From an uncultured Phycisphaeraceae bacterium (GTDB taxonomy: Bacteria; Planctomycetota; Phycisphaerae; Phycisphaerales; UBA1924), in contig CAZBXF010000003.1 in assembly GCA_964495635.1 (NCBI GenBank), positions 1 through 55,911 on the forward strand: DNA of 55,911 nucleotides, written 5' to 3'. The notes under the pieces were generated by a model. It was not told the origin of the DNA and ran no database searches. It was given only the letters and a program-made list of their open reading frames with translations. Below are positions 16,618-38,730 of the stretch, piece after piece; positions within the stretch are counted from its first letter, which is position 1; each line of letters begins with the position of its first letter. A program made the translations under genes and the position numbers.

Positions 16618-16662
16618 GATCATCTCCCTATAGCTGGACACTGGACGAGCAACACATCTACT

Positions 16663-18092: not shown

Positions 18093-18827
18093 CGAGGGAA
18101 CTCCGGTTCGTCGCGTCGCGGACGGGGGTGGTTGGCCAGGTTGGCCCAGACGGTGTTTCGATCACCCTCGGCGGCACAGGACCCGCATCAGTGACCCGTG
18201 GCGAATGGAGATCGCCGCCACGAATGGACCGGGTGTCCTGATGCGGAAGAACAATACACGCGAGCCTGCACATTACTTTCTTTGTTTGGTGTGATTTACA
18301 CTAAGAAGTGATGAAGGCAGGTCACCTCCACGCCACGGGGCGGTGCCGGGGCCAGAAGTTCGCAAGCCCATTCCTCACAGTGCCTTGGATTCGCAGGAAT
18401 CAGTGCGTCCCGCGAGGAAACGCAACCCACAGCCTGCGGGACAACCACCAGTCGGAGTATTCTCTCCGCACCCGCTGCGCAACCTTCGGGATCTCCCGAG
18501 GGTCGGCGAGAAGACCCTAACACTCAGCCTTCAATGATCTTAGGTTTGTCCTGGTACTCGCCACTTGTCGTGTGCCGGGTGCGACGCACACTTATGAAGA
18601 TCACACAATCTGCATATTGTCTTAATGATTTTCGAATGGTCAGACCCGCTCTCTCGGGGGGTATGCCCGGATCGCCCGGGCCGGACCAACCCCGCGCGGC
18701 CTCGCTCCAAGGCCACGACGCACGTCTACGGGCGGGGGTCCGGACCGGGTACCCTCCTTGATGGTTCTGCGAACGCCCTGCCGGGTCGCGCGGCTGTCGG
18801 ATCGCTGGAGACGCTCTGGAGACTGCG

Positions 18828-20713: not shown

Positions 20714-20905
20714 CTACACGCCGCAGCTGCCTGAGACGACGAAGGTGGCGATCAGCTGGGCGTCACCAAGGTCCACGTTCTCATCGTTGTTGACGTCGCC
20801 GCTGAGCCAGGAGGCTTCGGGCGTGACAAGGCCGACGACCGTGCGGGCCAGATCCTGGGCATCGGCGAGGTCGATGTTCTGGTCCTGGTTGAAGTCGTAG
20901 TCGCA
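20714..20905 (-). repeat. copy B of the 192-nt coding repeat (C-terminal dockerin-like module)
   Basis: Encodes CDYDFNQDQNIDLADAQDLARTVVGLVTPEASWLSGDVNNDENVDLGDAQLIATFVVSGSCGV*. This is the most divergent of the seven copies. Confidence 0.9.
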
Positions 20906-22642: not shown

Positions 22643-22775
22643 GCTGGATCTCCGTGCGGCCCCTCTCATGGGTGGGAAAACGCCGCGGCAGATCCGGTAT
22701 TGCGGACAAGGACGAAACAGTCTCGCGGGCGAGGGAGGTTCAGGGGAAGCACGGAGGGGAGGCGGGGAATTCGAA

Positions 22776-22837
22776 GTTAGGCATTTGGAGTTAGGCATTC
22801 GGCATTCGGGCTTTGCGAATGCCTCACCACGAATGCC
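22776..22837. promoter_or_regulatory. cluster of GGCATT / AATGCC hexamers (3 direct + 2 inverted) upstream of the peroxidase gene
   Basis: GGCATT at 22780, 22794 and 22801; AATGCC at 22818 and 22832. GTTAGGCATT is repeated with a 14-bp period (22776 and 22790). GGCATTCG (22801..22808) can pair with CGAATGCC (22816..22823). The patch is relatively AT-rich. Confidence 0.35.
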
Positions 22838-22861
22838 GAGTGCCTTCCGCGCCCCCACCAT

Positions 22862-23053
22862 TCACACGCCGCAGGTTCCCCTCACGACGTACGCCGCGAG
22901 GAGCTGGGCGTCGGTGAGGTCGGCGTTCTCGTCGTTGTTGAGGTCGCCGTCGAGCCAGTTGGCTTCGGGTGTGAGCGAGCCGACGAAGACCTGGGCCATC
23001 TGCTGCGCATCGAGGAGATCGATGTTCTCGTCGCGGTTGAAGTCGTAGTCGCA
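22862..23053 (-). repeat. copy C of the 192-nt coding repeat (C-terminal dockerin-like module)
   Basis: Encodes CDYDFNRDENIDLLDAQQMAQVFVGSLTPEANWLDGDLNNDENADLTDAQLLAAYVVRGTCGV*. Confidence 0.9.
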
Positions 23054-24409
23054 GGGGTTGCGGGGTGTGCGGTAGGCGCGGAGGTAGGTGTCGGTGCTTG
23101 CGACGATGAGGGTGCCGTCGGTGGCGAGGACGGGGGCGCCCTGGTTGAGGTTGCCGGTGACGGGCATCGACCAGCGTTCCGTGAGGTCGGGGTTGAAGGA
23201 GTAGAGCATGCCGCCGCCGAGGCCGCCGGCGTTGCCATTCGAGACGTAGAGCACGCCCCGCTGATCGACCGCCATGTGGATCTGCATGTAGTCGGCGGTG
23301 ATGGTTGCGGAGGTGTTGAGGACCGCGCCCGTCGCGGGATCGAGGCGCTGGAGCTGGCCCTGGGCCTCGAAGTCCTGCGTGCCGGTCCAGGTCATGGAGT
23401 AGATCGAGCCATCGGCCCCGACGCCCCAGCGGGAGAACTCGCCGCCGCCGCCGGAAGAGACGCGCCAGTTCTGGACGATCTCGGTGCCGGTGTCGGTGAA
23501 GGAGTAGAGGAAGTCGCTATTGACGTTGAAGTTCTGCGAGTAGTTGAGGTAGATGCGGCCGTCGGTGCCGATGAAGAGGCCGTTGTGCAAGAGGCCGCCG
23601 GTCAGGAGCGGGCCGCGGTAGAGGGGGGCGCCGGTCGTCGCGTCGATCTTGCGGACGCCGATGCGGTTTCCGGAGTAGAGGTCCGCGGTGTAGACGGCGT
23701 TGCCCTCGATGACGACGCCGGTGGTGTTACCGACCTGCTCGACGCGCGACGTCCGCCAGACGAGGTTGCCCGTCTCGGCGTCGATGCGTTCGATCCAGCG
23801 GAATGAGCCGAAGATGATGTCGCCATCGGAGGCGAAGACGGCGCTCGTGTACGGACCAGCCAGGATCTCATAGCGCGGCGGAAGCGGGCTCGGACCGCCC
23901 GCGGTGTGCCAGAGGATGGCGCCGGTAGCCGCGTCGAGGCAGTAGACCGGCGCGGCGATGCTCCCGCCGTTGCCGGAGCGGCTGGCGTAGAGGCGGCCGT
24001 TCTTCACGCCCGCGATCCACGTCGTCCAGTCGCCGGGCTCGAAGGGGAGATCGGCGGTCCACAGCGTGGCGCCGGTATCGAGATCGAGCGCGTAGATCGT
24101 GGCGTCGTTCGGGGGCGGGTTGTTCTGCGGAAAGTCCGACTGCCGGACGATAAACACGCGCCGTCCCTCGACGACGGGGTTCCAGGCGATCCAGCTGAAC
24201 GCGCCATCCTGCCAGAGGAGGTCCGACTCACCCACGCCATCAGGACCGACGACATCCACGAGGCCGTTGCAGCGGCCATTGCCGCCGAGGTTGGACCAGT
24301 CCTGGATCTGTGCCGAGGCAGCCGAAGCGGGCGCGAGCAGCGCGGCGCAGCAGGAGAGGAGGCCCGAACGGAAACGCCGTGAACGGAGAAGCGATCCTGC
24401 AAACATCAT
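22862..24409 (-). CDS. secreted PQQ-like/BamB-like beta-propeller repeat protein with the shared C-terminal dockerin-like module
   Basis: Signal MMFAGSLLRS...LLAPASAASAQ (GAGGAG upstream; the ATG at 24409 or 24406 could be used). Recurrent LD..TG..LW blades: IYALDLDTGATLW, VYCLDAATGAILW, IERIDAETGNLVW, RKIDATTGAPLY, LQRLDPATGAVL. Ends in CDYDFNRDENIDLLDAQ...VVRGTCGV. Full-length paralog of 35454..36935. Confidence 0.85.
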   Translation of the reverse strand: MMFAGSLLRSRRFRSGLLSCCAALLAPASAASAQIQDWSNLGGNGRCNGLVDVVGPDGVGESDLLWQDGAFSWIAWNPVVEGRRVFIVRQSDFPQNNPPPNDATIYALDLDTGATLWTADLPFEPGDWTTWIAGVKNGRLYASRSGNGGSIAAPVYCLDAATGAILWHTAGGPSPLPPRYEILAGPYTSAVFASDGDIIFGSFRWIERIDAETGNLVWRTSRVEQVGNTTGVVIEGNAVYTADLYSGNRIGVRKIDATTGAPLYRGPLLTGGLLHNGLFIGTDGRIYLNYSQNFNVNSDFLYSFTDTGTEIVQNWRVSSGGGGEFSRWGVGADGSIYSMTWTGTQDFEAQGQLQRLDPATGAVLNTSATITADYMQIHMAVDQRGVLYVSNGNAGGLGGGMLYSFNPDLTERWSMPVTGNLNQGAPVLATDGTLIVASTDTYLRAYRTPRNPCDYDFNRDENIDLLDAQQMAQVFVGSLTPEANWLDGDLNNDENADLTDAQLLAAYVVRGTCGV

Positions 24410-24498
24410 GGACTCCTCTACTTGGCCCCCCACTCCAAGAAGAACCACTCTTGGACTTGGGCATGCACGCGTGCACACGAGAAACGACCTGCGAAAGC

Positions 24499-24526
24499 GC
24501 ACGCGCCGGACCGAGCCGGCGCGTGC
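24499..24526 (-). terminator. GC-rich hairpin downstream of the PEP-CTERM gene (terminator candidate)
   Basis: A perfect 11-bp stem GCACGCGCCGG / CCGGCGCGTGC with a 6-nt loop, 28 nt after the stop at 24554. Only a weak T-run (GCTTTCG) follows on the minus strand. Confidence 0.4.
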
Positions 24527-24553
24527 ACGAGAGAGCTGGAGCGATGATGCCGT

Positions 24554-25453
24554 TCAGCGGCGGCGACGAAGGCCTGCAACCGCGCCAAGGCACAGGAGGC
24601 CCAGCGAGGCTGGCGCGGGGATGGCGTAGCCCTGCCACGCGCTCCGGGCGCCGTCGTAGACGAAGAGCTGACCATTGGCAAAGCCGACGCCGTACGCGAA
24701 GGGCGCGGCGATGTCGAGGTCCCAGGTGTCGACGTAGCTGCCATCGAGGCGGAAGGTGTACGCCTGGTTGGTGGCCGAGGAGGCGACGACGAGCAGGTCG
24801 TTCTGCTCGTCAAATCCGCCCGCGAAGAACGAGAAGCCGGGGTTGCCGATCGGCGCCGTGTCGAGCGTGATGGTTCCGAGGAGCGAGCCATCCACGCGGC
24901 TCACGCGGTGCACGGTGTTGGCGATGCTGAAGGAGTAGAAGAGGTTGCGACCGGTGTCGTAGACGGGCATGGTCTGGCGGCCGAGGTTCCCGGGGACGGT
25001 CGCGAGGAGGAGGCTCGTGGAGCCCGTGACGAGTCCGCTTCCATCAAGGCCAGCCGCAAAGAGCCCCTGTGCTCGGCCGCCGATGTCGCCGATGCCGCCG
25101 TCGCGCGCGTTGAAGGTCATGAGCTCGAGATTGCCTGTGTTGGCGTTGTAGTTGATCGAACGCAGGTCGTGCTCGATCTCGCCGAACTCCTGGAGCGGCG
25201 CTCCGGTCTCTGAGTAGACGTAGAGATCAGAGAGGAGGGGCTCTCCCGCACCTGCGCCGGCGGCGTAGTACTGCCGGAAGCCAGGGTGCCAGGTGACGTT
25301 CAGACCCGCACCCGGAGGCGCGGAGGTCGGGAGCACGATCGTCCGGGTTGCCACGCCCGCCTCCGCGGGGGCCGACGCCCCGACAACGCCCAGCGCCGCG
25401 ATCGAGCCGGCGAGCAGACTCACGAGGGCCGAAGAACGACAACGCTGCACCAT
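24554..25453 (-). CDS. secreted hypothetical protein with a PEP-CTERM-like C-terminal sorting signal
   Basis: The ATG at 25453 gives the signal MVQRCRSSALVSLLAGSIAALGVVGASAPAEA. The extreme C-terminus IPAPASLGLLCLGAVAGLRRRR* has the PEP-CTERM architecture (Pro-x-Pro motif, hydrophobic helix, Arg cluster). Confidence 0.75.
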   Translation of the reverse strand: MVQRCRSSALVSLLAGSIAALGVVGASAPAEAGVATRTIVLPTSAPPGAGLNVTWHPGFRQYYAAGAGAGEPLLSDLYVYSETGAPLQEFGEIEHDLRSINYNANTGNLELMTFNARDGGIGDIGGRAQGLFAAGLDGSGLVTGSTSLLLATVPGNLGRQTMPVYDTGRNLFYSFSIANTVHRVSRVDGSLLGTITLDTAPIGNPGFSFFAGGFDEQNDLLVVASSATNQAYTFRLDGSYVDTWDLDIAAPFAYGVGFANGQLFVYDGARSAWQGYAIPAPASLGLLCLGAVAGLRRRR

Positions 25454-25530
25454 GGTGATACCTCTCTGGATTGAGTGATCCTTCCCGGATTCGGGTGAGC
25501 CACACTCCCCGACAGTTCGGGAGTCTATCA

Positions 25531-25574
25531 GAAAACGCTGCCTCTGCAACCACTTTTGAAAGCGTTTTCAAAAG
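25531..25574. promoter_or_regulatory. AT-rich overlapping dyad symmetries in the divergent promoter between 24554..25453 and 25672..26940 (operator candidate)
   Basis: Dyad B: CTTTTGAAA (25553..25561) - GCGT - TTTCAAAAG (25566..25574). Dyad A: GAAAACGCT (25531..25539) pairs with AGCGTTTTC (25561..25569). It sits at the centre of a 218-bp divergent intergenic region. Confidence 0.35.
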
Positions 25575-25671
25575 TTTGTGTTTCTCTTGGTTTCCACCTC
25601 AGTCCCTGTTGGTTTTGCTGCTAAACTGCCACGCTGCGGCCCCGAGGGCCGATCCGGAGCATCACTGGTCC

Positions 25672-26940
25672 ATGAGTGACGAACGACAGCCACGCCTCGG
25701 AACTGGCCAGCTGGCCTTGGAGGCCATGAGCTTCGAGGCGGCTGCCACGGAAGTGGGCTGCCAGCTCCAGGAGGCGGTCAACGCACTCCTCGGCGAGCTG
25801 CCAGGCGCAGGTCCAGCTCCGACGGGGCCCGAACTCAGCGCGGCACTCGGGATCGACATCAACCTTGCCTGGAAGCTCCTGATCATCGCCAGGCCCGGCG
25901 CGAGCCTTGCGGGCCTGCTGCGCATGCCCGGCGAGGGCGCGCTCCGCATTCTCCTGAACGCTGCCAAGCGTCGGGGTGTCTCCGCGGCGACGCTGGAGCA
26001 GATCCGAGATGCCTTTGCCTCATTCGATCAGCTGATCGACAAGCACGCGGGGAGCCGGGCCGCGCTGGCTTCACTTCTCTCGCACGTTGATGGAGGACCG
26101 CAGCGCATCGATGTCGCGACACGCCGCGCGGCGTTCCGGGCCAACTCCTCGATGCTGGGGGTTCAGGCGGCGGTCCAGTTGGCGACGTACGTCTTCTGGC
26201 CCGAGACGATCGAGGGGGAGCGATCGTCGGCCATGGCGATCCTGCGTGGGCTGGGCGGGTTTCGTCGGCTGCGCTCAGACGTCTCGTGGATCATCGGCCG
26301 CGGCCGCCGCACCGACCACCAGGGGCGGCTCTATGGGCAGCCCTTCCCGCAGCCGCTCGATCCGGAGACTGCCAGCCTGCACGGCGGCGTTCCGCTGGTG
26401 AAGTTCTTCTCCTCTGCTGACCTGCCGCCTGTCCAGCGGACCATCACCGCCGACGGCATGGCGATCGATCGCATCGTCGCGGGGCCGGTTGGGCTCAAGG
26501 GCTCGCAGTCCTTCTTCCTCGCGGAGACGATGAGGCCGGGCCTGGCGAAGGCGCAGGACGCACAGAACCCGTCGCTCCGCCTCGTCACGTCCGTTCACAC
26601 GCCGTGCGAGCTGCTCGTCTTCGATGTGCTCTTCCATCAGGATCTGCCCGGGCTTGGCCCGCCGTCGCTGGTCACGGCGTCCGAACTCGGCGGCACCTCG
26701 CTGGGGTATTGCGATCCGAAGGACCGGGTGCTCCTGCACCTTGGCGCGGAGATCGAGGACCACGGCCGCGGCCTGCGCACGGCCCACATCCCCGAACTGC
26801 CGCGCTACCCCGAGATGCTCGGTTCGATCTGCGACCGAATCGGCGTTCGAAGGGAGGAATTCCAGATGCACCGGGTCATGATCGCCTTCCCGCCGATTCC
26901 GTGCGGCGTGATGATCGAACGCGACGTGAGAACGGCCTGA
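25672..26940 (+). CDS. uncharacterised cytoplasmic protein, paralog 1 (family not recognised; possible N-terminal HTH)
   Basis: 422 aa from the ATG at 25672, with no signal peptide or TM helix. Full-length similarity to 32478..33725, for example LAWKLL/LAWKVW, FASFDQLIDKHAGSR/FQALEALLRQHAGDR, RRAAFRANSSMLGVQ/RRGGFRAQSHFLGVQ, VHTPCELLVFDVL/VSTPCEHLVHDVL, LPRYPEML/LPRHAEML. Confidence 0.75.
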   Translation: MSDERQPRLGTGQLALEAMSFEAAATEVGCQLQEAVNALLGELPGAGPAPTGPELSAALGIDINLAWKLLIIARPGASLAGLLRMPGEGALRILLNAAKRRGVSAATLEQIRDAFASFDQLIDKHAGSRAALASLLSHVDGGPQRIDVATRRAAFRANSSMLGVQAAVQLATYVFWPETIEGERSSAMAILRGLGGFRRLRSDVSWIIGRGRRTDHQGRLYGQPFPQPLDPETASLHGGVPLVKFFSSADLPPVQRTITADGMAIDRIVAGPVGLKGSQSFFLAETMRPGLAKAQDAQNPSLRLVTSVHTPCELLVFDVLFHQDLPGLGPPSLVTASELGGTSLGYCDPKDRVLLHLGAEIEDHGRGLRTAHIPELPRYPEMLGSICDRIGVRREEFQMHRVMIAFPPIPCGVMIERDVRTA

Positions 26941-26947
26941 GAGAGCC

Positions 26948-27139
26948 TCACACGCCGCAGTTGCCGCTCACGACGTACGCCGCGAGGAGCTGCGCGTCCG
27001 TCAGGTCGGCGTTCTCGTCGCTGTTGAGGTCGCCGTCGAGCCAGTTCGCGCCGGGCGTGAGGAGTCCGACGAAGACCTCGGCCATCTGCTGCGCGTCGAG
27101 CAGGTCGACGTTCTCGTCCTGATTGAAGTCGTACTCGCA
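26948..27139 (-). repeat. copy D of the 192-nt coding repeat (C-terminal dockerin-like module)
   Basis: Encodes CEYDFNQDENVDLLDAQQMAEVFVGLLTPGANWLDGDLNSDENADLTDAQLLAAYVVSGNCGV*. The first 73 nt on the plus strand are identical to copy F (33852..). Confidence 0.9.
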
Positions 27140-28978
27140 GGGGTTGCAGGAGACCGGGCAGACGGTGAGGGTGGCCGCGTTGGTGAAGTTCGGGGCACAG
27201 ATCTCGCCCTTGAGGCGGAAGCGAAGGCGCGGCGCGAAGGTGCTGATCGCCTCGTCGATCCCTGTGATGGTGAGCGTTCCGGTCGAAGACCCGGAGACCT
27301 GGGCGCTGCTGAAGATGTCTGAGAATTCTCCGTCGAAGAGGTCCGTCCAACGGATGAGGGGTGGGTTGAACTCTGTCAGCACCTCGCCCCACTGCCAGGT
27401 GTAGGTAACGTCGGTGGAGCCGGTCATTGAGGCTTCGTACGACACGGTGCCGCCGAGCACCGCGGACGCGGACTCGGGCTGCGTGAGCACCGTCGGCTGC
27501 TCGCAAGGGACGGAGGTCAGACGAAGAACGTACTGCTGGTAGCCGCTGCCGCAGACGAAGCCATCGGCGAAGAGGTGAGCGACCGCGACGAAGTACTCAC
27601 CCGGCGTGAGGACAACCGAGCTTGAGGCGGGCACGCAGGGAGCCAGCGGGTTGGTGGTGCGCGAGAGCGTGAGTTGCTCTCCCGAGCAGGCCCCCACGGT
27701 CTGCGGCGGTCCGAGGATCACGGCCTCGACCGCGACCTGGCCACTCACGGATAGATTGACCTGCGCAGCTTCGGTGATGGTGAGGCGATACCAGTCGCGG
27801 TCACGATCGTTGAAGGCAGTCCCATTCCAGAGTGTGCCGACGATGGCCTCGTTGGGCGCGATCACACCAAACTCGCCACCGGGCAGGTTGCAGCCGTTGT
27901 TGAGAGTCTCGCCGCAGGCCTCGGGCTCGATGGTGGCGCCGGGCGGCACCGCCAGCGTGCACGGCGATCCGAGCGGATCGATGTTGAGGACGATGCTGCC
28001 GACGCCGCCCGCGCGGCCGGCCACCGAGAAGAGAACCGGCTCACCCTGCGTTGCGAAGAGCGTGAGGCGCGTGCCGCCCGCGAAGACGAAGTTACCACCC
28101 CCGCTGCATCGCTCGGGCACACCGAAGCACCCGGAGAACTTCGTCAGGATCGGAGAGGCAGAACCCGAGGCCACGACCTGCACCCAGCCCGTCTGCGTGG
28201 GCGTGTAGCTGAACCAGACGTCCTTGAACGTCAGGCCCGGGATGTTCGCGTAGCAGGGGCTCGTGCCGTCCTGCGTCGCGCCCTCGTTGGTGCCGACGAA
28301 GGCCGGGGTGGCGCCGACATCCTCAGAGATGGCGGCCGCGGCGTCGCAGTTGTCGTTGAAAGGAGGTGGCAGGGGTGTGGTGTTGCCGCCGGCGAGTGAC
28401 ACCTCGAGATAGGTGTCCTCGTCACCGAATCCGAGCTGATAGGAGGCTGAGGTCTGGACGCTCCACGCTGTTTCGCCGAAGGAGACTTCGGGCCCCACGC
28501 CCGCGACCACGGCGAGCCAGTACTCACCCGCCGCGAGCGTGGGCCCGGACTGGCCCCGCAGGCGCGGGAACTCAGGCGGGGTGCGCTCCGCCACCGATCC
28601 GAAGGAGAGGCCTGAGCCCGGCCGGCCACGGCCGTCGGTCGTGTCGTCCGAAGCTACCAGCGCGCCAGCAGCGTCGTAGAGGCCCAGGGCGATGTCCCCG
28701 CCCGCCGCGAAGAGGGAGGCCGAAACGTCAAGGTACAGCTCGCCCGCGATCGGCGTGGTGAGATCGAACCTCAGCCACTTGACGGAGAGAACTTCACCGG
28801 GCGAGACTCCATCGCCAAAGTCGAAGGCGAGCGATGTGTCGATGGGCTCCTGAGCCGAGGCGGGGATTGCGGGCGCGATGACCTCGCCAAGGTCGACGAA
28901 GTCCGTGGGTTGTGCGAGTGCTGCGGGAGCAAGGCTGCCACACACGAGCGCCGTCATCGACCAAAGTGCGTTTCGCAT
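26948..28978 (-). CDS. secreted multi-beta-sandwich protein (PPC/pre-peptidase-C-terminal-like and Ig-like domains) with the shared C-terminal dockerin-like module
   Basis: The ATG at 28978 (AAGGA upstream) gives the signal MRNALWSMTALVCGSLAPAALAQP. PPC-like segments: GELYLDVSASLFAAGGDIALGLYDAAGALVASDD and DRDWYRLTITEAAQVNLSVSG. Ends in CEYDFNQDENVDLLDAQ...VVSGNCGV. The domain call is tentative. Confidence 0.8.
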   Translation of the reverse strand: MRNALWSMTALVCGSLAPAALAQPTDFVDLGEVIAPAIPASAQEPIDTSLAFDFGDGVSPGEVLSVKWLRFDLTTPIAGELYLDVSASLFAAGGDIALGLYDAAGALVASDDTTDGRGRPGSGLSFGSVAERTPPEFPRLRGQSGPTLAAGEYWLAVVAGVGPEVSFGETAWSVQTSASYQLGFGDEDTYLEVSLAGGNTTPLPPPFNDNCDAAAAISEDVGATPAFVGTNEGATQDGTSPCYANIPGLTFKDVWFSYTPTQTGWVQVVASGSASPILTKFSGCFGVPERCSGGGNFVFAGGTRLTLFATQGEPVLFSVAGRAGGVGSIVLNIDPLGSPCTLAVPPGATIEPEACGETLNNGCNLPGGEFGVIAPNEAIVGTLWNGTAFNDRDRDWYRLTITEAAQVNLSVSGQVAVEAVILGPPQTVGACSGEQLTLSRTTNPLAPCVPASSSVVLTPGEYFVAVAHLFADGFVCGSGYQQYVLRLTSVPCEQPTVLTQPESASAVLGGTVSYEASMTGSTDVTYTWQWGEVLTEFNPPLIRWTDLFDGEFSDIFSSAQVSGSSTGTLTITGIDEAISTFAPRLRFRLKGEICAPNFTNAATLTVCPVSCNPCEYDFNQDENVDLLDAQQMAEVFVGLLTPGANWLDGDLNSDENADLTDAQLLAAYVVSGNCGV

Positions 28979-29052
28979 CGCTGAGTCCTTCGTGCTTTGG
29001 GGGAAGTCCATGGGGACGAGCTTGGGGAAGACACACCAACAGGCAACCGGAC

Positions 29053-29244
29053 TCACACGCCGCAGTTGCCCGTGACGACGAACGAGGCCAGCAGCTGCGC
29101 GTCGGTCAGGTCTGCGTTCTCGTCGCCATTGAGGTCGCCATCGAGCCAGCCCGCCTCGGGTGGGATCAGGCCGACGAAGACCTGGGCCATCTGCTGAGCG
29201 TCGAGCAGATCGACGTTCTCGTCCTGGTTGAAGTCGTAGTCGCA
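29053..29244 (-). repeat. copy E of the 192-nt coding repeat (C-terminal dockerin-like module)
   Basis: Encodes CDYDFNQDENVDLLDAQQMAQVFVGLIPPEAGWLDGDLNGDENADLTDAQLLASFVVTGNCGV*. Confidence 0.9.
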
Positions 29245-32200
29245 GGGGTTGCCGCCCTGGAACTCGAAGGCTCCGATGTCGAGGCCGCCGCCCGCGACGC
29301 GGGCCGCGCGGGACAGATCGAGCGTGATCTGAGGGGGCAGCGACGCGGCGTCGCCAGCGTTGATGGAGGTTGACGAGGCAGTCAGGGCGTAGTCACCCGA
29401 AGCCGCGTTCGCGAAGGCCGGATCATCATCGATGTTCCCAAGGCCGAGGTAGCCGCCCGCGATGTTGGAGTAGGTCACGTCGACGGTGGGCTGAGTGCCG
29501 CAGAAGTTCTGGATGTTGGCCAGACCGGTGCTGGCTCGGACGATGGTGTTGCTGACCGAGCTCTCGGCGACGGCATCGCATGATCCGAAGACCACGCCGC
29601 CGGCGGCATTGCCGACGATTGTGGAAGCCGAGAGAACGTGCTTGCGAGGTGTGCCGCCGATGCCATCGAGCATGATGCCGCCGCCGCGATCGGTGGCGGT
29701 GTTGCCGGCGATGAGCATGTTGGTGAGCGTGGCGTCGAGCGAGTCGGACCAGAGCCCGCCGCCGCGCCCGGCGGTGTTGCCAATCAGGCGGATGCGATCG
29801 AGCCGGGTGGGCCCCTGGCGGCTTACGAAGATGCCGCCGCCGCGGGCGTTGTTGGCGTTACCGCCGGGGGCAGGGGCCGCGATGCCGCCGATGCAGGTGA
29901 TGTCCTCGAGGATCGCGGTCGAGGTCGTCCCGCCGCCAGAGAGGTGCAGGCCAGCGCCGACGCGGGCGCGGTTGTTGACGAAGGTGAGGTTGCGGGCGAT
30001 GACGTTGAGACCATCAAGTCGGGCGCCGCCACCATCGCCAAAGCTGTCGGAGGCGGTGGGGATCGCCTGACAGTCGGTGAAGGTGCTCTCCTCGACGGTG
30101 AGGGTGCCGGTGCTGATGGCCCAGAGTCCGCCGCCGATCTTCGAGCGGCAGTTGTTGAATGTCAGGCGTCGCGCCGTGGCGGTGGTGCCGCTGAGGCGCA
30201 GGCCGCCGACATCGCCGAAGGAGCCCGAAGCGGTCGGGATTCCGAAGCAGTTCGTGAAGGTCGAGTCTTCGACCAGCGACGACGTGCTCCCTCCGACGGC
30301 CAGGCCGCCGACGAACTTCGCCGAGCAGTCGGAGACTGTGACGTTGCGAACGACCGTGATGCCGCCACCGATATCGCCCGCGCCGTAGTCGCCGCCGTTG
30401 TTGTTGACGGGCGTCGCGACGAGGTTGCGGAAGATGGAGTCCTGGATCGTCGTCGTGGACGTGGTGCTGGTGCCGGCGGTCTTGATGCCCGCGACGTTGC
30501 GTGCGGTGCAGTTCTCGACCAGAACGCGGTTCAGGAGGATGGTGTTGGCCGTGACGTTGGCCGCGGCCCAGTCGCCCCCCTGATTGTCGGGCGTCACCGC
30601 TGCGTGCAGGTTTCGGAACTGCACGTCGGTGAAGGAGACGGTGGCGTCGGAGCGGGCGGGGAAGATGATGCCCGCGCCCTGGCGCGACGTCGCGTCGCGG
30701 AAGATCGTGTTCGAGACGATCAGCCCGCCACCCAGCTGCTCGTTCCAGATGTGGGCACCGGCGTTGGGAGCGATGTTGTTGGCAAAGTCTGAATTCTCGA
30801 TGGTGAGAACGACACGACCGCTCATGCCGATGGCGCCGCCCTGCTGGTTGGTGGGGCCGAGCGTCTCGTTGCCGGTAAAGGTGCAGTTGCGGATCAGCGC
30901 GTTGCGGGCCGTGCTCTGGAGTGCTTCCAGCCAGATGCCGGCCCCGCGGTTGTTGGTGGCGGTGTTGTTCTGGAAGGTGCAGTCGATGAACGAGACGTTG
31001 CTCCGGCGGACGCGCACCGCGCCGCCCTCGTTGTCGGACGTGCTGCCGGAGTTCACGTTGTTGTTCCGGAAGGTGCAGCCGTCGAAGGTCGTGAGCTGTG
31101 CACCGCTGTTGACGCGCACCGCGCCGCTCCCACCGCTGAGCACGAAGCTCCCCGACGTGGCCCCCACCGCGCGGTTGCCTTCGAAGAGACAGTCCGTGAC
31201 CGTCGTCTGGTGCGTGGTGGCCAGTGCGCCCGCGACCGCCGCGGTGTTGTTGCGGAAGATCGTGTTCTCGATGATGGAGCCGCCTGGGGGCGCGTTCGTG
31301 CTGCCCTGCGCGATGGCCCCGCCGATGCCGCCATTGGCAACGTTGCCCTCAAAGAGGGCGTTGCGCACCACAAACGCACCTGCGGCGGCGGTCTCGACGG
31401 CCGCGTTGCCGCTTGCGGTGTTGCCGGTGAAGGTCGTGCCATCGATGATGATCGAGGCGGTGTTGCCGGTGCCGATGCCCTTGATCGCGGAGCCGTTGCC
31501 GCGCGTGACGCTGTTGGTCGCGAACGAGCCCCCGGTGATCGTGAGCGTCGCGCTGTCGCGGATCGCGATGGCGCCGCCGCCGCCGAAGGTCGTGCTGACA
31601 GAGCCCGTGGAGGTGGTCGTGGCAGAGTTGCCGGTGAAAGTGCTCGAAGTGATGGTCACGATGCTCGTGCCACTGGCACCGATCGCGCCGCCGCCAAGTT
31701 CGACTGACTGATTCGCCTCAAAGGTCGAGCCCGAGACGATCAGGGTCCCATCCACCACCGAGATGGCGCCACCGAGCCCGGCGCCGGTCGTGATGACCGC
31801 CGCGGCGTTGTTGCGGAAGGTCGACGAGACAATCTCAACGGTCCCGCCGACGACGGACAAGCCCGCTCCCGCGCCGTCGAAGCTCACGTTCCCCTCGACG
31901 ATGCAACCCTCGATCCGCAGCGGCGTCGCCGTGGTAGAGATGCCCGCTCCCGTCCCGCTCGAGCCGAGGTTCCCGCCGCTGATGGTCAGTCCCTGGAGCG
32001 TGACGCCGCCGCCGATCGTGCTCATGGTGATGACCGGACCGGTCGTGCCGCCGCCACTGATCGTCGTCTGGGCCGCCCCTGCCGTGCCGCGGATCACAAG
32101 CGCTTTGCCGAGCAGGTCGAGCTGCTCGTTGTACGTGCCCGGCGCGACCAGGATCAGATCGCCCGGACTCGCGGCGGCGATCGCCCCCTGGATCGTCGGC

Positions 32201-32322
32201 ACATCCGCCGGAACGTTGATCGTCGCCGCGGATGCCGCCGTTCCGACCAGCATCGTGAGCAGCGTTGCCGACAGCGGGAGGACCGAAGAGGAGCGCGTAC
32301 AGAGTCCGGTTCGACACGACAT
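29053..32322 (-). CDS. large secreted right-handed parallel beta-helix protein with Pmp-like (GGA[IV] / FxxN) repeats and the shared C-terminal dockerin-like module
   Basis: The ATG at 32322 (GGAGG 7 nt upstream) gives a signal ending ...LLTMLVGTAASAATINV. More than 10 alternating motifs are present, such as GGAISVV, GGGAIGAS, GGGAIAIR, GGAIAQGS, GGAVRVR, GGAIGMSG, GGGLWAIS, GGGIFVS and GGGIMLDG. These alternate with FRNNAA, FEANQS, FTGNSA, FATNSV, FTGNTA, FEGNVA, FRNNTA, FQNNTA, FANNIA and FVNNRA. Ends in CDYDFNQDENVDLLDAQ...VVTGNCGV. Confidence 0.85.
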   Translation of the reverse strand: MSCRTGLCTRSSSVLPLSATLLTMLVGTAASAATINVPADVPTIQGAIAAASPGDLILVAPGTYNEQLDLLGKALVIRGTAGAAQTTISGGGTTGPVITMSTIGGGVTLQGLTISGGNLGSSGTGAGISTTATPLRIEGCIVEGNVSFDGAGAGLSVVGGTVEIVSSTFRNNAAAVITTGAGLGGAISVVDGTLIVSGSTFEANQSVELGGGAIGASGTSIVTITSSTFTGNSATTTSTGSVSTTFGGGGAIAIRDSATLTITGGSFATNSVTRGNGSAIKGIGTGNTASIIIDGTTFTGNTASGNAAVETAAAGAFVVRNALFEGNVANGGIGGAIAQGSTNAPPGGSIIENTIFRNNTAAVAGALATTHQTTVTDCLFEGNRAVGATSGSFVLSGGSGAVRVNSGAQLTTFDGCTFRNNNVNSGSTSDNEGGAVRVRRSNVSFIDCTFQNNTATNNRGAGIWLEALQSTARNALIRNCTFTGNETLGPTNQQGGAIGMSGRVVLTIENSDFANNIAPNAGAHIWNEQLGGGLIVSNTIFRDATSRQGAGIIFPARSDATVSFTDVQFRNLHAAVTPDNQGGDWAAANVTANTILLNRVLVENCTARNVAGIKTAGTSTTSTTTIQDSIFRNLVATPVNNNGGDYGAGDIGGGITVVRNVTVSDCSAKFVGGLAVGGSTSSLVEDSTFTNCFGIPTASGSFGDVGGLRLSGTTATARRLTFNNCRSKIGGGLWAISTGTLTVEESTFTDCQAIPTASDSFGDGGGARLDGLNVIARNLTFVNNRARVGAGLHLSGGGTTSTAILEDITCIGGIAAPAPGGNANNARGGGIFVSRQGPTRLDRIRLIGNTAGRGGGLWSDSLDATLTNMLIAGNTATDRGGGIMLDGIGGTPRKHVLSASTIVGNAAGGVVFGSCDAVAESSVSNTIVRASTGLANIQNFCGTQPTVDVTYSNIAGGYLGLGNIDDDPAFANAASGDYALTASSTSINAGDAASLPPQITLDLSRAARVAGGGLDIGAFEFQGGNPCDYDFNQDENVDLLDAQQMAQVFVGLIPPEAGWLDGDLNGDENADLTDAQLLASFVVTGNCGV

Positions 32323-32413
32323 GAAAGAGCCTCCGGGACTGCTTGAAATGGGGACCGGGTGGGGCCGACGGATCACTTTCGGTAACCTACCGGGGGGAGC
32401 GGTGCCTGTCCAG

Positions 32414-32433
32414 CAAAATGTTCAAACATTTTG
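32414..32433. promoter_or_regulatory. AT-rich perfect palindrome in the divergent promoter between 29053..32322 and 32478..33725 (operator candidate)
   Basis: CAAAATGTT-CA-AACATTTTG has 9-bp perfect arms. It lies 45 nt upstream of the ATG at 32478 and 92 nt upstream of the ATG at 32322. It is the most AT-rich stretch in this intergenic region. Confidence 0.35.
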
Positions 32434-32477
32434 GTGAACCCGACCAGAGCCTTTGGTATGCTTGCGCCATTCAGTCG

Positions 32478-33725
32478 ATGGAGAGGCCGCACATGCCCGT
32501 GAAGACCCCTGCGAGTATCGCGACGGACCCACCCGAGACCGACTTCACCGAGGAGGCGCGGCATGTCCTCGCGCTCCTGCGCCGAGCCACGGGCGCGCTG
32601 ATCGGGTCGCTCGCGGATGCGGATCGGCCCGTCCGCCTGGCCGACCGCCTGTCGATCGATCGGAGCCTGGCGTGGAAGGTCTGGCAGGTGGGGCACGGTG
32701 AGGCCGCGTGCCCTTCGGCGGCACACATTCCCGGGTCGGCGGGCTTCGAGCACTTTCTCCAGGCTGCGGGCACGGCGGGCGCGCCGCTCTCGCTGGTGGA
32801 ACGGGCGCGATCGGCCTTCCAGGCGTTGGAAGCGCTCCTCCGGCAGCACGCCGGCGACCGCACCTCCGGCGCCATGATGCTCGGCTCACTCTCCGACGAG
32901 GGACGGGACCGGCTCGAGCGTGCCGTGCGACGCGGCGGATTCAGGGCGCAGAGTCACTTCCTGGGCGTGCAGACGCGTGTGCTGTATCAGGCCGATCTCC
33001 TTATTCCCACACAGGCCGGATTCTGGCCGGATGTGGCGCGTCTGCGAGGACACTTCGGACTTCAGCGCACCCGCGCCAATGTTCCCTGGATCATCGCGAG
33101 GAGCACGCCCGTCAACGCCGACGGACCCATCTGGGAACACACGCGCCAGCCGCTCGAGCCTGGCGCTGCGGCCGAAGGAGAGTCGCCGCTGCTGGTGAAT
33201 CGCTTCTGCTCGTCGCCACGCCCGCGCGTCAACCGGCGCGTGCTGGTGGGTGTCACCGTGGAAGATGAGCTTGAACCCGGACCGATCGGGCAGACGGGCG
33301 CGGTTGATGTCGTCACGGGCGAACTCGTGCGCGTGAAGGAGCAGGCCGACACACTCACCAACGCCGTGACGATGGCCGTCTCGACGCCTTGCGAGCACCT
33401 CGTGCATGATGTGCTCATCGTGCAGGGCAGGCCGGGTGCCGCGGCGGGGCCGGTGGAGCTGAGGCTCCACGCGACCGTGCACGGCGACCTTCCCTACCTG
33501 CGCGGGCGCGAGTCGTACGCCGTTCCGGTCATGGAGCAGTTTGTCGATCTCGGCCCCGTGAGCGAGGCTCCCGCGTACCCCTCGCTCCCGCGCCACGCCG
33601 AGATGCTGGACTGGCTCTTGGAACGCACGGGCAACGACCCGGCGAAGGTTCGGCTCTACAGACTGACGATGCGCATGCCGCCACTCCCGAGCTGCGCCGC
33701 GGCGATCTACCGCATCGGCGGCTGA
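32478..33725 (+). CDS. uncharacterised cytoplasmic protein, paralog 2 (same family as 25672..26940)
   Basis: 415 aa from the ATG at 32478 (alternative ATG at 32493), with no signal or TM. Collinear similarity to paralog 1 along the whole length; see that entry. Confidence 0.75.
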   Translation: MERPHMPVKTPASIATDPPETDFTEEARHVLALLRRATGALIGSLADADRPVRLADRLSIDRSLAWKVWQVGHGEAACPSAAHIPGSAGFEHFLQAAGTAGAPLSLVERARSAFQALEALLRQHAGDRTSGAMMLGSLSDEGRDRLERAVRRGGFRAQSHFLGVQTRVLYQADLLIPTQAGFWPDVARLRGHFGLQRTRANVPWIIARSTPVNADGPIWEHTRQPLEPGAAAEGESPLLVNRFCSSPRPRVNRRVLVGVTVEDELEPGPIGQTGAVDVVTGELVRVKEQADTLTNAVTMAVSTPCEHLVHDVLIVQGRPGAAAGPVELRLHATVHGDLPYLRGRESYAVPVMEQFVDLGPVSEAPAYPSLPRHAEMLDWLLERTGNDPAKVRLYRLTMRMPPLPSCAAAIYRIGG

Positions 33726-33851: not shown

Positions 33852-34043
33852 TCACACGCCGCAGTTGCCGCTCACGACGTACGCCGCGAGGAGCTGCGCG
33901 TCCGTCAGGTCGGCGTTCTCGTCGTTGTTGAGGTCACCATCGAGCCAGTTCGCGCCGGGCGTGAGGAGCCCGACGAAGACCTGAGCCATCTGCTGCGCGT
34001 CGAGGAGATCGATGTTCTCATCCTGGTTGTAGTCGTAGTCGCA
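33852..34043 (-). repeat. copy F of the 192-nt coding repeat (C-terminal dockerin-like module)
   Basis: Encodes CDYDYNQDENIDLLDAQQMAQVFVGLLTPGANWLDGDLNNDENADLTDAQLLAAYVVSGNCGV*. By hand count it has about 13 mismatches to copy D over 192 nt. Confidence 0.9.
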
Positions 34044-35291
34044 GGAGTTGCCGCAGCGTTCAAGGGTTGCGATGCCGCGGGCGTCGACGGGGCCGATGGA
34101 GACGAAGCTGCCGCCGATGACGAGATCGCCGCGCCACTCGCCCATGCCGAAGGCGCTGGGCCAGTTGCCGCTGGTGGTGCGGTTGGGCGTGGATGAGTCG
34201 CGCAGGCTGCCGTCGACGGACTCCCAGGTGTTGCCGACGAGCTTGCCGAAGTTGTTGATGCCCGGGAAGGCCGTGCCGGAGAAGTAGAGGGAGGTGTCGC
34301 TGCCGTTGTTCCAGGAGCGCAGCGCGGTGACGCGGCCGGTGCCGAGGCTCTGGCCGACGAAGGCCCAGTTGCTGCCATTCCAGCGCGCGGTGTGGCGCGT
34401 GCCGCTGACACCGGTGATGCCGAAGGACGTGCCGCCGACGTAGAGCGCGGGACCAGTGCCGGGATTGTGGATCGTCATGGAGTCGAGCTGGCGGAGCGAA
34501 TCACCCAGGCGCGTGAGGCCGAAGCCGATGCGCTGCCAGGTGCCATTGCGGAACCGCGCGGCGAGGGCGGTGTTCTGGCCGTCGATCGTGTCGAAGCGGC
34601 CTACGGCGTAGAGCGCGGGGCCCGTGCCATCATCGAAGATCTCAAGGTCGGCGATGTAGGGGCTGAAGACGCCCGCGATCCCGACGCCCGTGCCCACCGC
34701 CGACCACGACTCACCATCGAACTGCGCGATGCCGCCGAAGGGCACGGTCGAGCCGCCCGCGACAAACAGGCGCGGGCCCTGGCCAAGGTCCCCCACCACC
34801 ATGTCCCAGATCGCCGTGCCCTGCGGCACGTTGAGGGAGAGGGACTGCCACTGCGACCCATTCCACGCGGCGATGGACTGCGTGTTCGCGACGCCGCCGG
34901 CGTTGGCGAAGAGACCCGCGACAATCAGGCGCGTGCCGGAGCCGTCGTTGAAGGGAACCATGCTCGTGAGGAACCCGTTGGTGAAGCCAAGCCCAAGGCC
35001 GGTGCCGAGGCGCTCCCAGTCGTTGGTCACGGGGTTGTACCGCGCGAGGAGCTGGCTCACGAGCCCGCCGATCTCGCTGAAGGAGCCGCCGACGTAGAGC
35101 TTCTCACCCGAGCCGTCGTCGTACGCAAGGATCGGATCGGCGTAGCCGTCCTGAAGGCCGGGCGTGCCAATGAAGCCGCTGTACGTCGGCGGACACTGGG
35201 CCGAGGCCGCGGGCACACAAATCCCGGCAGCGCTGATGCAGATGAGGCCAGAGAGCAGCGAAGCGGTAGCGCGATGGGCGTGATTCTTCAT
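33852..35291 (-). CDS. secreted 7-bladed beta-propeller-like repeat protein with the shared C-terminal dockerin-like module
   Basis: Signal MKNHAHRATASLLSGLICISAAGICVPAASAQ. Seven repeats of the type L[YFI]V[GA]G.F..IGG.......A[RW]....W...G, for example LYVGGSFSEIGGLVSQLLARYNPVTNDWERLG and LYAVGRFDTIDGQNTALAARFRNGTWQRIG. Ends in CDYDYNQDENIDLLDAQ...VVSGNCGV. Confidence 0.8.
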   Translation of the reverse strand: MKNHAHRATASLLSGLICISAAGICVPAASAQCPPTYSGFIGTPGLQDGYADPILAYDDGSGEKLYVGGSFSEIGGLVSQLLARYNPVTNDWERLGTGLGLGFTNGFLTSMVPFNDGSGTRLIVAGLFANAGGVANTQSIAAWNGSQWQSLSLNVPQGTAIWDMVVGDLGQGPRLFVAGGSTVPFGGIAQFDGESWSAVGTGVGIAGVFSPYIADLEIFDDGTGPALYAVGRFDTIDGQNTALAARFRNGTWQRIGFGLTRLGDSLRQLDSMTIHNPGTGPALYVGGTSFGITGVSGTRHTARWNGSNWAFVGQSLGTGRVTALRSWNNGSDTSLYFSGTAFPGINNFGKLVGNTWESVDGSLRDSSTPNRTTSGNWPSAFGMGEWRGDLVIGGSFVSIGPVDARGIATLERCGNSCDYDYNQDENIDLLDAQQMAQVFVGLLTPGANWLDGDLNNDENADLTDAQLLAAYVVSGNCGV

Positions 35292-35453
35292 GCGTGCAAG
35301 ATACCACGCGGCACACGGATTGTGAAGGGCTGCTTCGATGTTTCTCCCCCACTTCTCCCCCTCTGCGGGCGTCGCCGCGGTCTGCTCGGAGGCAGGAAGC
35401 GAGGCTGATCCGATTGAGCTTGTAGAGACAAGGCGACCGTCGGCCCCGAAACA

Positions 35454-35645
35454 CTAGATCCCGCACGTACCGCTTACGACAAACGCCGCGAGCAGCTGCG
35501 CATCCGTCAGGTCTGCATTCTCATCGCCATTCAGATCACCATCAAGCCAACCTGCCTCGGGCGCGAGAATCCCCACAAAAACCTGGGCCATTTGCTGCGC
35601 GTCGAGCAGGTCCACGTTCTCATCGCGGTTGAAGTCGTACTCGCA
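35454..35645 (-). repeat. copy G of the 192-nt coding repeat (C-terminal dockerin-like module)
   Basis: Encodes CEYDFNRDENVDLLDAQQMAQVFVGILAPEAGWLDGDLNGDENADLTDAQLLAAFVVSGTCGI*. Confidence 0.9.
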
Positions 35646-36935: not shown

Positions 36936-37145
36936 TTGGGAGCCTCCTGTCCGGTAGAAGTCCTCATCCCCGGAACGATTCGTTCAGACTAACGGCAGGC
37001 TCGGGGCTGTCAAGGTGCGGCCGGATGACTTGCATAACCTTCATGGAGGGAACGGGTCGTGCTGTCGATGACCCAAGACCCGCATTTCGATCGCCCTTCC
37101 GCGGGCAGGAACGCCCGCAGACGCACACGCACGAGGACACCGGTC

Positions 37146-38699: not shown

Positions 38700-38730
38700 T
38701 CGATCGCCCACCGCCAGATTGTGAGTCCCT

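Follow-up and report, generated by a model that had tools for sequence, protein, structure and literature searches.

LysR-type transcription regulators (LTTRs) are one-component proteins with an N-terminal helix-turn-helix (HTH) and a C-terminal effector domain. They are typically divergent from their target operon, with a dyad in the shared spacer near the target's -35 element, and are often activators that autoregulate. Regulators of the MarR/winged-helix type bind short palindromic operators as dimers. In CRP/FNR-type class II activation, the dyad is centred near -42 to -47 and abuts the -35 element of the target at a constant distance.

Planctomycetota genomes encode many hypothetical proteins and few characterised regulators, and to our knowledge the control of their very large secreted and surface-anchored repertoires is essentially unknown. 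Here we analysed two paralogous proteins encoded in a 55,911-nucleotide stretch of DNA from an uncultured Phycisphaeraceae bacterium (contig CAZBXF010000003.1), hereafter called the window. Judging from sequence and predicted structure, we propose that they are probably one-component transcription regulators of the divergent exoprotein operon, with an HTH-like N-domain and a sensor C-domain, and that they probably act as activators.

Results

The two proteins are encoded on the plus strand:

25672..26940, plus strand: paralog 1, 422 aa, subfamily 1 of an unnamed family
32493..33725, plus strand: paralog 2, 410 aa from the ATG at 32493 (415 aa from the start at 32478), subfamily 2

They align collinearly from end to end, with 31% identity over 408 columns (BLASTP, E 5e-44), in agreement with the initial annotation, which had described a 422-aa and a 415-aa protein as collinear paralogs. 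Both ORFs are present in the frames given there, but for paralog 2 the ATG at 32493 is a likelier start than position 32478, because a GGAGAG Shine-Dalgarno sequence (32480-32485) lies 7 nt ahead of this ATG and the database copy of the protein is 410 aa long. The shared blocks were found in paralogs 1 and 2, respectively, as LAWKLL and LAWKVW, HAGSR and HAGDR, RRAAFRANSSMLGVQ and RRGGFRAQSHFLGVQ, TPCELLVFDVL and TPCEHLVHDVL, and LPRYPEML and LPRHAEML; the residues had been quoted correctly except for a '[VM]..' prefix to the TPCE block, which was off by one residue. GC3 is 0.83 for both, a value in keeping with real genes. As had been noted, both proteins lack a signal peptide and transmembrane segments: the top Kyte-Doolittle 19-mer reaches only 1.16 in paralog 2 and 1.64 in paralog 1, where the stretch includes D, N, K and R. 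Both are cytoplasmic.

The paralogs are embedded in a cluster of minus-strand exoprotein genes:

20714..22861, minus strand: di-haem cytochrome c peroxidase with tail
22862..24502, minus strand: PQQ-like beta-propeller with dockerin-like tail
24554..25453, minus strand: 299-aa exoprotein with signal peptide and PEP-CTERM tail, divergent from paralog 1
20714..25453, minus strand: presumed target operon of paralog 1 (the three genes above, with gaps of 51 and 0 nt)
26948..29056, minus strand: galactose-binding-like domain and dockerin-like tail, converging on paralog 1
29053..32322, minus strand: NosD-like beta-helix with choice-of-anchor Q domain and dockerin-like tail, divergent from paralog 2
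26948..32322, minus strand: presumed target operon of paralog 2 (the two genes above, with a 4-nt overlap)
33852..35291, minus strand: gene with dockerin-like tail, converging on paralog 2

The paralogs are the sole plus-strand genes between 20.7 and 37 kb, where none of the remaining plus-strand ORFs looks gene-like, and their divergent secreted-protein genes and convergent dockerin-tailed genes are likewise as first described. The product of 24554..25453 scored 16.8 bits with PEP_CTERM (TIGR02595), against a cut-off of 16. With Pfam Dockerin_1 the tails in the window scored 22-24 bits, around the cut-off of 22.9.

Both paralogs belong to an unnamed family of 2,791 clusters at 50% identity, all of them unnamed and essentially all from Phycisphaerae (Planctomycetota). 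Each has orthologs in other genomes at 45-93% identity, with synteny kept. In searches of Pfam, NCBIfam, PADLOC and PHROGs, neither paralog matched a well-characterised enzyme family or any other model above cut-off; the best scores, for DUF1552 (E 0.31) and MmpB (E 0.028), were far below the cut-offs. No HTH or other DNA-binding family was matched in Pfam or NCBIfam, and ten distant family members matched nothing in the family libraries. Sequence profile searches of the PDB returned only a weak match to the winged-helix ribosomal protein S25e (E 0.0066 with a 34-sequence profile, 0.099 with a 150-sequence profile). Literature searches on the family found nothing. A candidate PilZ-like c-di-GMP motif (RxxxR near NxSxxG, residues ~152-163) was rejected: its second motif is unconserved in an alignment of 150 sequences, and the spacing does not fit.

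AlphaFold2 (AF2) gave a confident model of paralog 1 (pLDDT 88.5), with a helical N-domain (residues ~11-162) and a beta-rich C-domain (164-420). The N-domain, ~160 aa long, is made up of helices and lacks a predicted beta wing. Within it, two helices (52-59 and 63-73) joined by the turn GID adopt a helix-turn-helix arrangement exactly at the ELSAALGIDINLAWKLL segment, where an HTH had been suspected. This HTH-like pair is the most conserved N-terminal element of the family: L65, W67 and K68 each reach at least 90% conservation, and the flanking helix positions vary by subfamily (DIN..KLL versus DRS..KVW). With a fold match defined as E ≤ 1e-3 together with TM ≥ 0.5, Foldseek found no known fold for the full model in the PDB or BFVD; the best matches were PDB 3kd4 (E 1.3e-3, TM 0.23) and, in BFVD, one with E 0.04 and TM 0.09. 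A single-sequence model of the N-domain, of mediocre quality (pLDDT 67), also had no significant match in the PDB; its non-significant matches included MepR, of the MarR family (E 1.1, probability 0.15). The predicted helix pair at the quoted segment is in line with the proposed N-terminal HTH, but no HTH family or fold match reached significance.

The locus set that we compared was modest, the narrower alignment leading to 11 genome loci and one metagenome locus. For 21 of the 24 family genes examined, the 5' neighbour lies on the opposite strand and encodes a protein with a signal peptide and a PEP-CTERM or GC-type dockerin tail; two others (L006 and L007) are co-directional with their upstream neighbour. 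In subfamily 1 the ~300-350-aa partner is retained at 58-68% identity and the PQQ gene at ~68-70%; in subfamily 2 the retained partner is a NosD-like beta-helix protein, with 44% full-length identity in L003. With dockerin_GC (NF041540; cut-off 29), the L003 partner scored 33.4 bits and the L005 partner 25.1, below the cut-off. The partners have folds unrelated to one another (beta-helix, ~300-aa protein, FGE-sulfatase-like, DUF11 repeats, pseudopilin-like), and even orthologous partners vary in their tails. The initial annotation had raised a linkage of the family to genes carrying the window's 63-aa tag. We rejected this, as an HMM of the tag matched seven window genes and gave a single weak match in 20 homolog loci, with no real matches outside the source genome. 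The conserved trait is a partner that combines a signal peptide with some C-terminal sorting tail, either PEP-CTERM or GC-type dockerin.

The spacers between the divergent genes contain palindromes and putative promoters:

25552..25575, no strand: subfamily-1 palindrome, ACTTTTGAAAGCGTTTTCAAAAGT, AT-rich, with 10-nt arms and the core ACTTTTnnAAGT
25522..25549, minus strand: putative sigma70-type promoter of the operon divergent from paralog 1; -35 TTGCAG (25549-25544), 16-nt spacer, -10 TAGACT (25527-25522)
32416..32431, no strand: subfamily-2 palindrome, perfect, AAATGTTCAAACATTT, extending to 32414-32433, CAAAATGTTCAAACATTTTG
32384..32412, minus strand: putative sigma70-type promoter of the operon divergent from paralog 2; -35 TGGACA (32412-32407), 17-nt spacer, -10 TAGGTT (32389-32384)

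These two are the window's only AT-rich perfect palindromes, and its other exoprotein genes have no such AT-rich block. Each orthologous group keeps its own palindrome: that of paralog 1's group reads ACTTTTnnAAGT, and that of paralog 2's group AAATGTTyrAACATTT. G and C positions within the block are invariant, and dyad symmetry is perfect in several genomes. Eight subfamily-2 loci each contain a single copy of AAATGTTnnAACATTT (at most one mismatch), placed 40-110 nt ahead of the start codon, and no other occurrence was found in 351 kb with up to two mismatches. Exact matches to ACTTTTnnAAGT in 385 kb lie upstream of subfamily-1 genes only. The same 351 kb contain 13 AT-rich perfect palindromes, nine of them no more than 200 nt ahead of a family gene. 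Further subfamilies carry dyads of the same xxxTT-NN-AAxxx type but of other sequence: GTTTT-TG-AAAAC, adjoining TGTCAA, in L020, ATTTTC-CA-GAAAAT in L021 and ATTTCTAATTAGAAAT in L022. The distant members L019 and L006 showed no clear AT-rich dyad. A reading of the dyads as RNA hairpins was discarded, since loops of 0-2 nt and AT-only stems are not viable.

Apart from the palindrome, the only conserved parts of these otherwise unalignable spacers are a TTGACA-like hexamer and AnnnTA. Neither window spacer yielded a promoter when scanned with a strict sigma70 consensus, and our exoprotein-side promoter calls rest instead on conservation of position across genomes. The palindrome lies 2-3 nt upstream of the conserved exoprotein-gene promoter (TTGACA-like hexamer, 16-17 nt, TAnnnT). 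In the window, the putative promoter at 25522..25549 begins 2 nt from the subfamily-1 palindrome, a position conserved across 5-6 loci, and that at 32384..32412 begins 3 nt from the subfamily-2 palindrome, as conserved across 10 loci. A minus-strand TAnnnT is found 24-25 nt from the palindrome in 5/5 subfamily-1 loci and 25-26 nt from it in 9/10 subfamily-2 loci; its background rate is 0.0012 per position. At L007, which lacks a divergent partner, one half-site is degenerate, and so is the -35 element.

Discussion

We infer that the family protein itself binds the palindromes. In the mechanism that we propose, a dimer would contact the AT-rich palindrome via the HTH-like segment of its helical N-domain, with the invariant L-A-W-K helix. 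The palindrome would be centred at about -42 to -47, uncertain by a few nt as the transcription start sites are predictions, placed at about 25515 and about 32377 on the minus strand. Given this placement just upstream of the -35 element, the most likely effect on the exoprotein operon would be activation of a class-II-like kind. The ~260-aa beta-rich C-domain may serve as the sensor of a signal. Each paralog would have its own operator, through which paralog 1 would act on the 25453->20714 operon and paralog 2 on the 32322->26948 operon.

The family shares the layout of LTTRs, with divergent genes and a dyad next to a -35-like hexamer, and its proposed role would share their one-component architecture; we take this as a functional analogy only. 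Unlike LTTRs, the family has no match to HTH_1 (PF00126) or LysR_substrate (PF03466) (hmmscan of the window proteins and ten distant members against Pfam, with E values up to 1 considered), its proteins are ~100 aa longer, their C-domain is beta-rich and not periplasmic-binding-protein-like, and its dyads do not follow the T-N11-A pattern. The pattern hydrophobic-x-x-L-G-I-D-x-x-L-A-W-K recalls MarR/winged-helix regulators, as would binding of a short palindrome by a dimer, but there is no Pfam MarR match and the N-domain is helical without a predicted wing. The abutment of dyad and -35 element resembles that of CRP/FNR-type class II activators; the proteins themselves are unrelated to these, as no cNMP-binding or HTH_Crp domain was found.

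The initial annotation had offered two readings, dedicated regulators of the neighbouring exoprotein genes or chaperones or modification factors for them. The former is favoured by the conserved divergent pairing, the group-specific palindromes, the fixed promoter distance and the AF2 helix pair, with DNA binding itself deduced from these features and no significant HTH match among them. In the latter, the palindrome would be the operator of another regulator, and the co-regulated family protein would assist the exoprotein in the cytoplasm, for instance as chaperone, as adaptor for secretion or sorting, or as an enzyme that modifies PEP-CTERM- or dockerin-tailed proteins. The conserved neighbourhood with tailed exoproteins would suit such a helper, as would the lack of a recognised DNA-binding domain, and the many conserved arginines together with the large conserved beta-rich domain could bind a substrate. 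We nevertheless consider it unlikely, because in 21 of 24 cases the genes are divergent from their partners and not co-operonic, because partners of unrelated folds and varying tails fit a regulator and not a dedicated chaperone or enzyme, and because a separate unknown regulator would be needed for every subfamily, each having its own palindrome. An HTH-like pair as the most conserved N-terminal element also speaks against it.

The AT-rich block might instead be promoter architecture, either an UP element contacted by the alpha subunit of RNA polymerase or the core of a shared bidirectional promoter, and so be silent on the function of the family protein. Relative to the minus-strand promoter it does occupy the zone of UP elements, at about -39 to -54; it is AT-rich although the genome has 67% GC, and its outer A and T tracts are ~11 nt apart. 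We know of no reason to expect UP elements to be palindromic or group-specific, however, and the invariant inner G/C positions, the perfect symmetry, the conservation of a distinct sequence within each orthologous group and the absence of the block at the window's other exoprotein genes make this explanation improbable. Hardly credible is a recent local duplication, or a mobile module of exoprotein gene plus accessory gene. Two copies do lie within 8 kb in similar arrangements, and the L021 and L014 contigs also carry two, but the paralogs are less similar to each other than to their orthologs elsewhere in conserved synteny, and we saw no flanking repeats, transposase or integrase in their neighbourhood. 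The two genes are, by these comparisons, ancient paralogs and not a local duplication; the shared local arrangement noted earlier holds for both copies, but is a feature of the whole family.

If the family proteins are regulators, a function could be assigned to ~2,800 sequence clusters, with an operator and a target operon predicted for each, and the control of dockerin-tailed and PEP-CTERM-tailed exoproteins would become directly testable. Their combination of DNA-binding and sensor domains would have no counterpart among solved structures. More tentatively, and with somewhat more doubt than confidence, the family may be a new superfamily of lineage-specific transcription factors with a new two-domain fold, the main class of local regulators for surface-anchored exoproteins with GC-dockerin or PEP-CTERM tails in Phycisphaerae, with a readable operator code that relates the variable residues beside the invariant LAWK helix to the dyad of xxxTT-NN-AAxxx type. 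It would then be feasible to predict regulons, and perhaps inducing signals as well, across thousands of uncultured genomes.

The family protein probably autoregulates its own gene too. Possible elements of the paralogs' own promoters, read by eye, are:

25619..25627, plus strand: possible extended -10 of paralog 1, TGcTAAACT, weak
32454..32462, plus strand: possible extended -10 of paralog 2, TGgTATGCT

A TGnTAnnnT sequence like the latter is present in six of the ten orthologous loci.

Two paralogous proteins in the exoprotein gene run

The GC content of the window is ~67%. A run of minus-strand secreted-protein genes at 20.7-38.9 kb is interrupted by two plus-strand ORFs, whose translations (25672..26940 and 32478..33725) align end to end with 31% identity and 45% positives (E 5e-44). 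All of the shared sequence blocks listed in the initial annotation were found in both. Signal peptides and TM segments are absent from the two proteins, whose genes each have a GC3 of 0.83. The start of paralog 2 appears better placed at ATG 32493, which follows a GGAGAG Shine-Dalgarno sequence by 7 nt and gives the 410 aa of the database copy. The arrangement of neighbors is as that annotation described it, with signal-peptide or tailed genes around both paralogs:

25672..26940, +: paralog 1, 422 aa
24554..25453, -: divergent partner of paralog 1, signal peptide and PEP-CTERM tail (TIGR02595, 16.8 bits, cut-off 16)
26948..29056, -: gene converging on paralog 1, same dockerin-like tail as 29053..32322
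32478..33725, +: paralog 2 from the start first proposed, 415 aa
29053..32322, -: divergent partner of paralog 2, NosD-like beta-helix, choice-of-anchor Q domain and dockerin-like tail
33852..35291, -: gene converging on paralog 2, same dockerin-like tail as 29053..32322

Further along, the longest ORFs at 37041-38855(-), a 604-aa gene without a Pfam match, and 38731-40098(+), a FIST-domain gene, overlap by ~125 nt at their 5' ends.

Family size, spread and predicted structure

Searches of Pfam, NCBIfam, PADLOC and PHROGs gave no near-threshold match for either paralog, nor did Pfam for ten of their distant relatives. Word-indexed searches returned 20 and 32 relatives, none of them named, and an exhaustive profile search at a 50%-identity clustering returned 2,791 clusters reaching E <= 1e-3, 1,376 of them reaching E <= 1e-30. 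When the search was seeded with distant members, every entry returned was a "hypothetical protein" of a Phycisphaerae or Planctomycetota MAG; the genome loci with family genes are titled Phycisphaerales or Phycisphaeraceae, plus one "Eisenbacteria" bin. Many members are ~30% identical to both window proteins, so the family is old and diversified. Two copies often share a contig, as in the window and in two homolog loci from other genomes (L021 and L014).

An AlphaFold2 model built from a 34-sequence alignment is confident (pLDDT 88.5, pTM 0.68) and consists of a helical N-domain (residues ~11-162) followed by a beta-rich C-domain (164-420). Foldseek found nothing convincing for the full model in the PDB (best E 1.3e-3, TM 0.23) or BFVD, nor did an N-domain model predicted from one sequence (pLDDT 67) give a convincing match (MarR-type MepR at E 1.1). 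The sole match in PDB profile searches was the winged-helix ribosomal protein S25e (E 0.0066 with 34 sequences, 0.099 with 150), in an alignment that covers the family's ...LGIDxxLAWKv... segment. The best-conserved N-terminal element is a helix, a G-I-D turn and a second helix with an invariant L-A-W-K, whose flanking residues differ by subfamily: DIN-LAWK-LL versus DRS-LAWK-VW, with DRT, DKS and DMK in others.

A conserved divergent exoprotein partner

Genomic context was examined for 24 family genes: the two in the window plus 22 from 20 further loci. For 21 of them, the 5' neighbor lies on the opposite strand, starts with a signal-peptide-like segment and ends in a sorting-type tail, at a distance of 150-550 nt (once ~1 kb). 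Two kinds of tail occur, PEP-CTERM and a Cys-terminated dockerin-like sequence, the GC-type dockerin of NCBIfam (NF041540, cut-off 29 bits; 33.4 bits in L003, 25.1 in L005). Two exceptions to divergence, L006 and L007, are co-directional with the upstream gene.

The partner is kept within each orthologous group. In subfamily 1, that of paralog 1, a ~300-350-aa partner (58-68% identity) is followed by a PQQ-like propeller (~68-70% identity) in L001, L004 and L008, and L024 has the same gene order as judged by gene sizes and Pfam family. The subfamily 2 partner is a NosD-like beta-helix with identities of 44% along its full length in L003, 41% in L023 and 38% in L013; in L009, L011 and L015 the similarity lies at the N terminus. 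Between subfamilies the partners are unrelated and include FGE-sulfatase-like, DUF11-repeat and prepilin-type N-terminal domain proteins. The gene downstream of the family gene is not conserved.

The orthologous ~300-350-aa partners (58-68% identity) carry different C-terminal sorting tails, a swap of tails between exoproteins that are otherwise conserved:

window 24554-25453(-) and L024 4883-5803: PEP-CTERM tail
L001 8764-9795, L004 8719-9750 and L008 8178-9227: Cys-terminated dockerin-like tail

The subfamily-2 gene of L014 is divergently paired with a gene (5807 downwards, -) for a prepilin-type N-terminal methylation-domain protein instead of a beta-helix. A second paralog on that contig (311-1567, +) is transcribed divergently from a further signal-peptide gene, with a TTTCT-CCAA-AGAAA dyad upstream of the paralog. 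In L022 (11663-16101) and L025 (8981-13173), family members have a gene pair for an ECF sigma factor and a repeat-domain Ser/Thr kinase a few genes away, which may be coincidental.

Palindromes in the shared spacer

Only eight stretches of the window have at least 12 A/T in 16 nt, and two of them lie directly upstream of the paralogs. These two hold the only perfect AT-rich palindromes in the window whose arms reach 6 nt or more:

25552-25575: ACTTTTGAAAGCGTTTTCAAAAGT, upstream of paralog 1
32414-32433: CAAAATGTTCAAACATTTTG, upstream of paralog 2

In the window and loci together (351 kb) there are 13 such palindromes, and nine fall within 200 nt upstream of family genes, regions that total 4.4 kb. 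In subfamily 2, AAATGTTnnAACATTT occurs with at most one mismatch once per locus in the window, L003, L009, L011, L013, L014, L015 and L016, in every case 40-110 nt upstream of the start codon; L005 and L023 have weaker copies at the corresponding position. In the 351 kb, no further match with up to two mismatches was found; the count expected in the window at up to three mismatches is 0.09. In subfamily 1, exact matches to ACTTTTnnAAGT across 385 kb occur only upstream of the family gene (L001, L004, L024, L025), and the window has a copy with one mismatch upstream of its family gene; only three unrelated one-mismatch matches exist on both strands of the 385 kb. In other subfamilies the dyad differs but follows the shared pattern xxxTT-NN-AAxxx (L020, GTTTT-TG-AAAAC; L021, ATTTTC-CA-GAAAAT; L022, ATTTCTAATTAGAAAT), and some distant members (L019, L006) show no clear one.

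The window's other AT-rich stretches (18270-18309, 18611-18638, 3986-4009 and 8953-8974) may be further regulatory sites; two lie within the divergent spacer between 17031-18092(-) and a redoxin-domain gene, 18828-20705(+). The member on the contig binned as Candidatus Eisenbacteria (L017, DAOVQB010000232.1), which could be a mis-binning or a rare occurrence outside Planctomycetota, has the helix ERSLAWKIW, close to DRSLAWKVW of subfamily 2. Upstream of it, TGTCAA overlaps a CAACATGTTG palindrome, reusing the AACAT/ATGTT half-site of subfamily 2.

Geometry of the predicted promoters

MAFFT alignments of the spacers conserve only three elements: the dyad, an adjacent hexamer and AnnnTA. For the hexamer, subfamily 2 has TGTCAA/TGTCAG (TTGACA on the minus strand) and subfamily 1 has TGCAAG (TTGCA(G/A) on the minus strand); AnnnTA reads TAnnnT on that strand. 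By script, the distance from the dyad edge to the start of the minus-strand TAnnnT is 25-26 nt in nine of ten subfamily-2 loci (the tenth has TATCTG) and 24-25 nt in all five subfamily-1 loci; the background frequency is 0.0012 per position. This layout (-35, 16-17 nt, -10) is that of a predicted sigma70-type promoter for the divergent exoprotein gene; the dyad lies upstream, separated from the -35 by 2-3 nt. The call rests on conserved position, since a strict sigma70 consensus scan finds no promoter in either window spacer, where the predicted hexamers (TTGCAG/TAGACT and TGGACA/TAGGTT) are too weak.

With start sites predicted at the usual 7 nt from the -10, the dyad is centered at ~-42 to -47, a typical activator position adjoining the -35. 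On the plus strand, an extended -10 (TGnTAnnnT) read by eye lies 19-33 nt after the dyad. Given the fixed minus-strand spacing and this variable one, the dyad keeps a rigid position relative to the exoprotein promoter, and its link to the promoter of the family gene itself is loose. In the single case of L007, which lacks a divergent partner, the -35 and one half-site are degenerate. This subfamily-2 gene (~9940-9960, on the same contig as L010) lies downstream of a prepilin peptidase gene and keeps only half of the palindrome (AAATGTTCAGACAGAG), without the adjacent TGTCAA hexamer.

A candidate one-component regulator

In comparative genomics, gene pairs that remain divergent across genera are reportedly most often a regulator and its target (Korbel et al. 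2004). The simplest model, which we think probable, is that each family protein would bind its own dyad as a dimer and control the divergent exoprotein operon, probably as an activator, with the beta-rich C-domain as sensor. It is favored because the divergent pairing is kept, a group-specific dyad is fixed at the target's -35, and the helix/turn/helix has subfamily-specific flanks. The predicted targets are:

25453->20714, -: target of paralog 1; PEP-CTERM protein, PQQ propeller and di-haem peroxidase, gaps of 51 and 0 nt
32322->26948, -: target of paralog 2; beta-helix protein and galactose-binding-domain protein, overlap of 4 nt

It is unlikely, though worth weighing, that the dyads are bound by some other factor and that the family protein instead assists the exoproteins in the cytoplasm: the genes are divergent, the partners have unrelated folds, and one additional regulator would be needed for each subfamily. 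We give still less credence to the AT-rich block being a UP element or a bare promoter core, against which stand its invariant G/C positions, its dyad symmetry and its specificity to the orthologous group. That the two copies reflect a recent duplication or a mobile module is highly improbable, as the orthology pattern contradicts it.

In function, the model comes closest to LysR-type regulators, which are encoded divergently, use a dyad near the target's -35 and autoregulate, and to class-II activators. Tests for membership in LysR, MarR or any curated family were negative; neither Pfam nor NCBIfam has a model for the family, and no PDB fold matches it. We regard these proteins as candidate one-component regulators of new architecture; the argument is coherent though indirect, and it would offer testable operator/target/regulator triplets at once for an under-studied phylum.

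The 63-aa tag

A linkage of the family to the window's C-terminal 63-aa tag had also been proposed. An HMM of this tag matched seven window genes (110-158 bits) and gave one weak match in the 20 homolog loci; the exact tag is a property of this genome, and the proposed linkage does not generalise. The tag-bearing ORFs, given stop-to-stop, each end in a Cys...Cys dockerin-like tail of ~63 aa:

13750-16785, 20717-22861 and 22865-24553, -
26951-29392, 29056-32421, 33855-35453 and 35457-36983, -

One of these genes (20714-22861) encodes a di-haem cytochrome c peroxidase. The tails are nearly identical among the seven genes and hardly occur in homolog loci from elsewhere, and their near-identity suggests recent homogenisation or strong selection.
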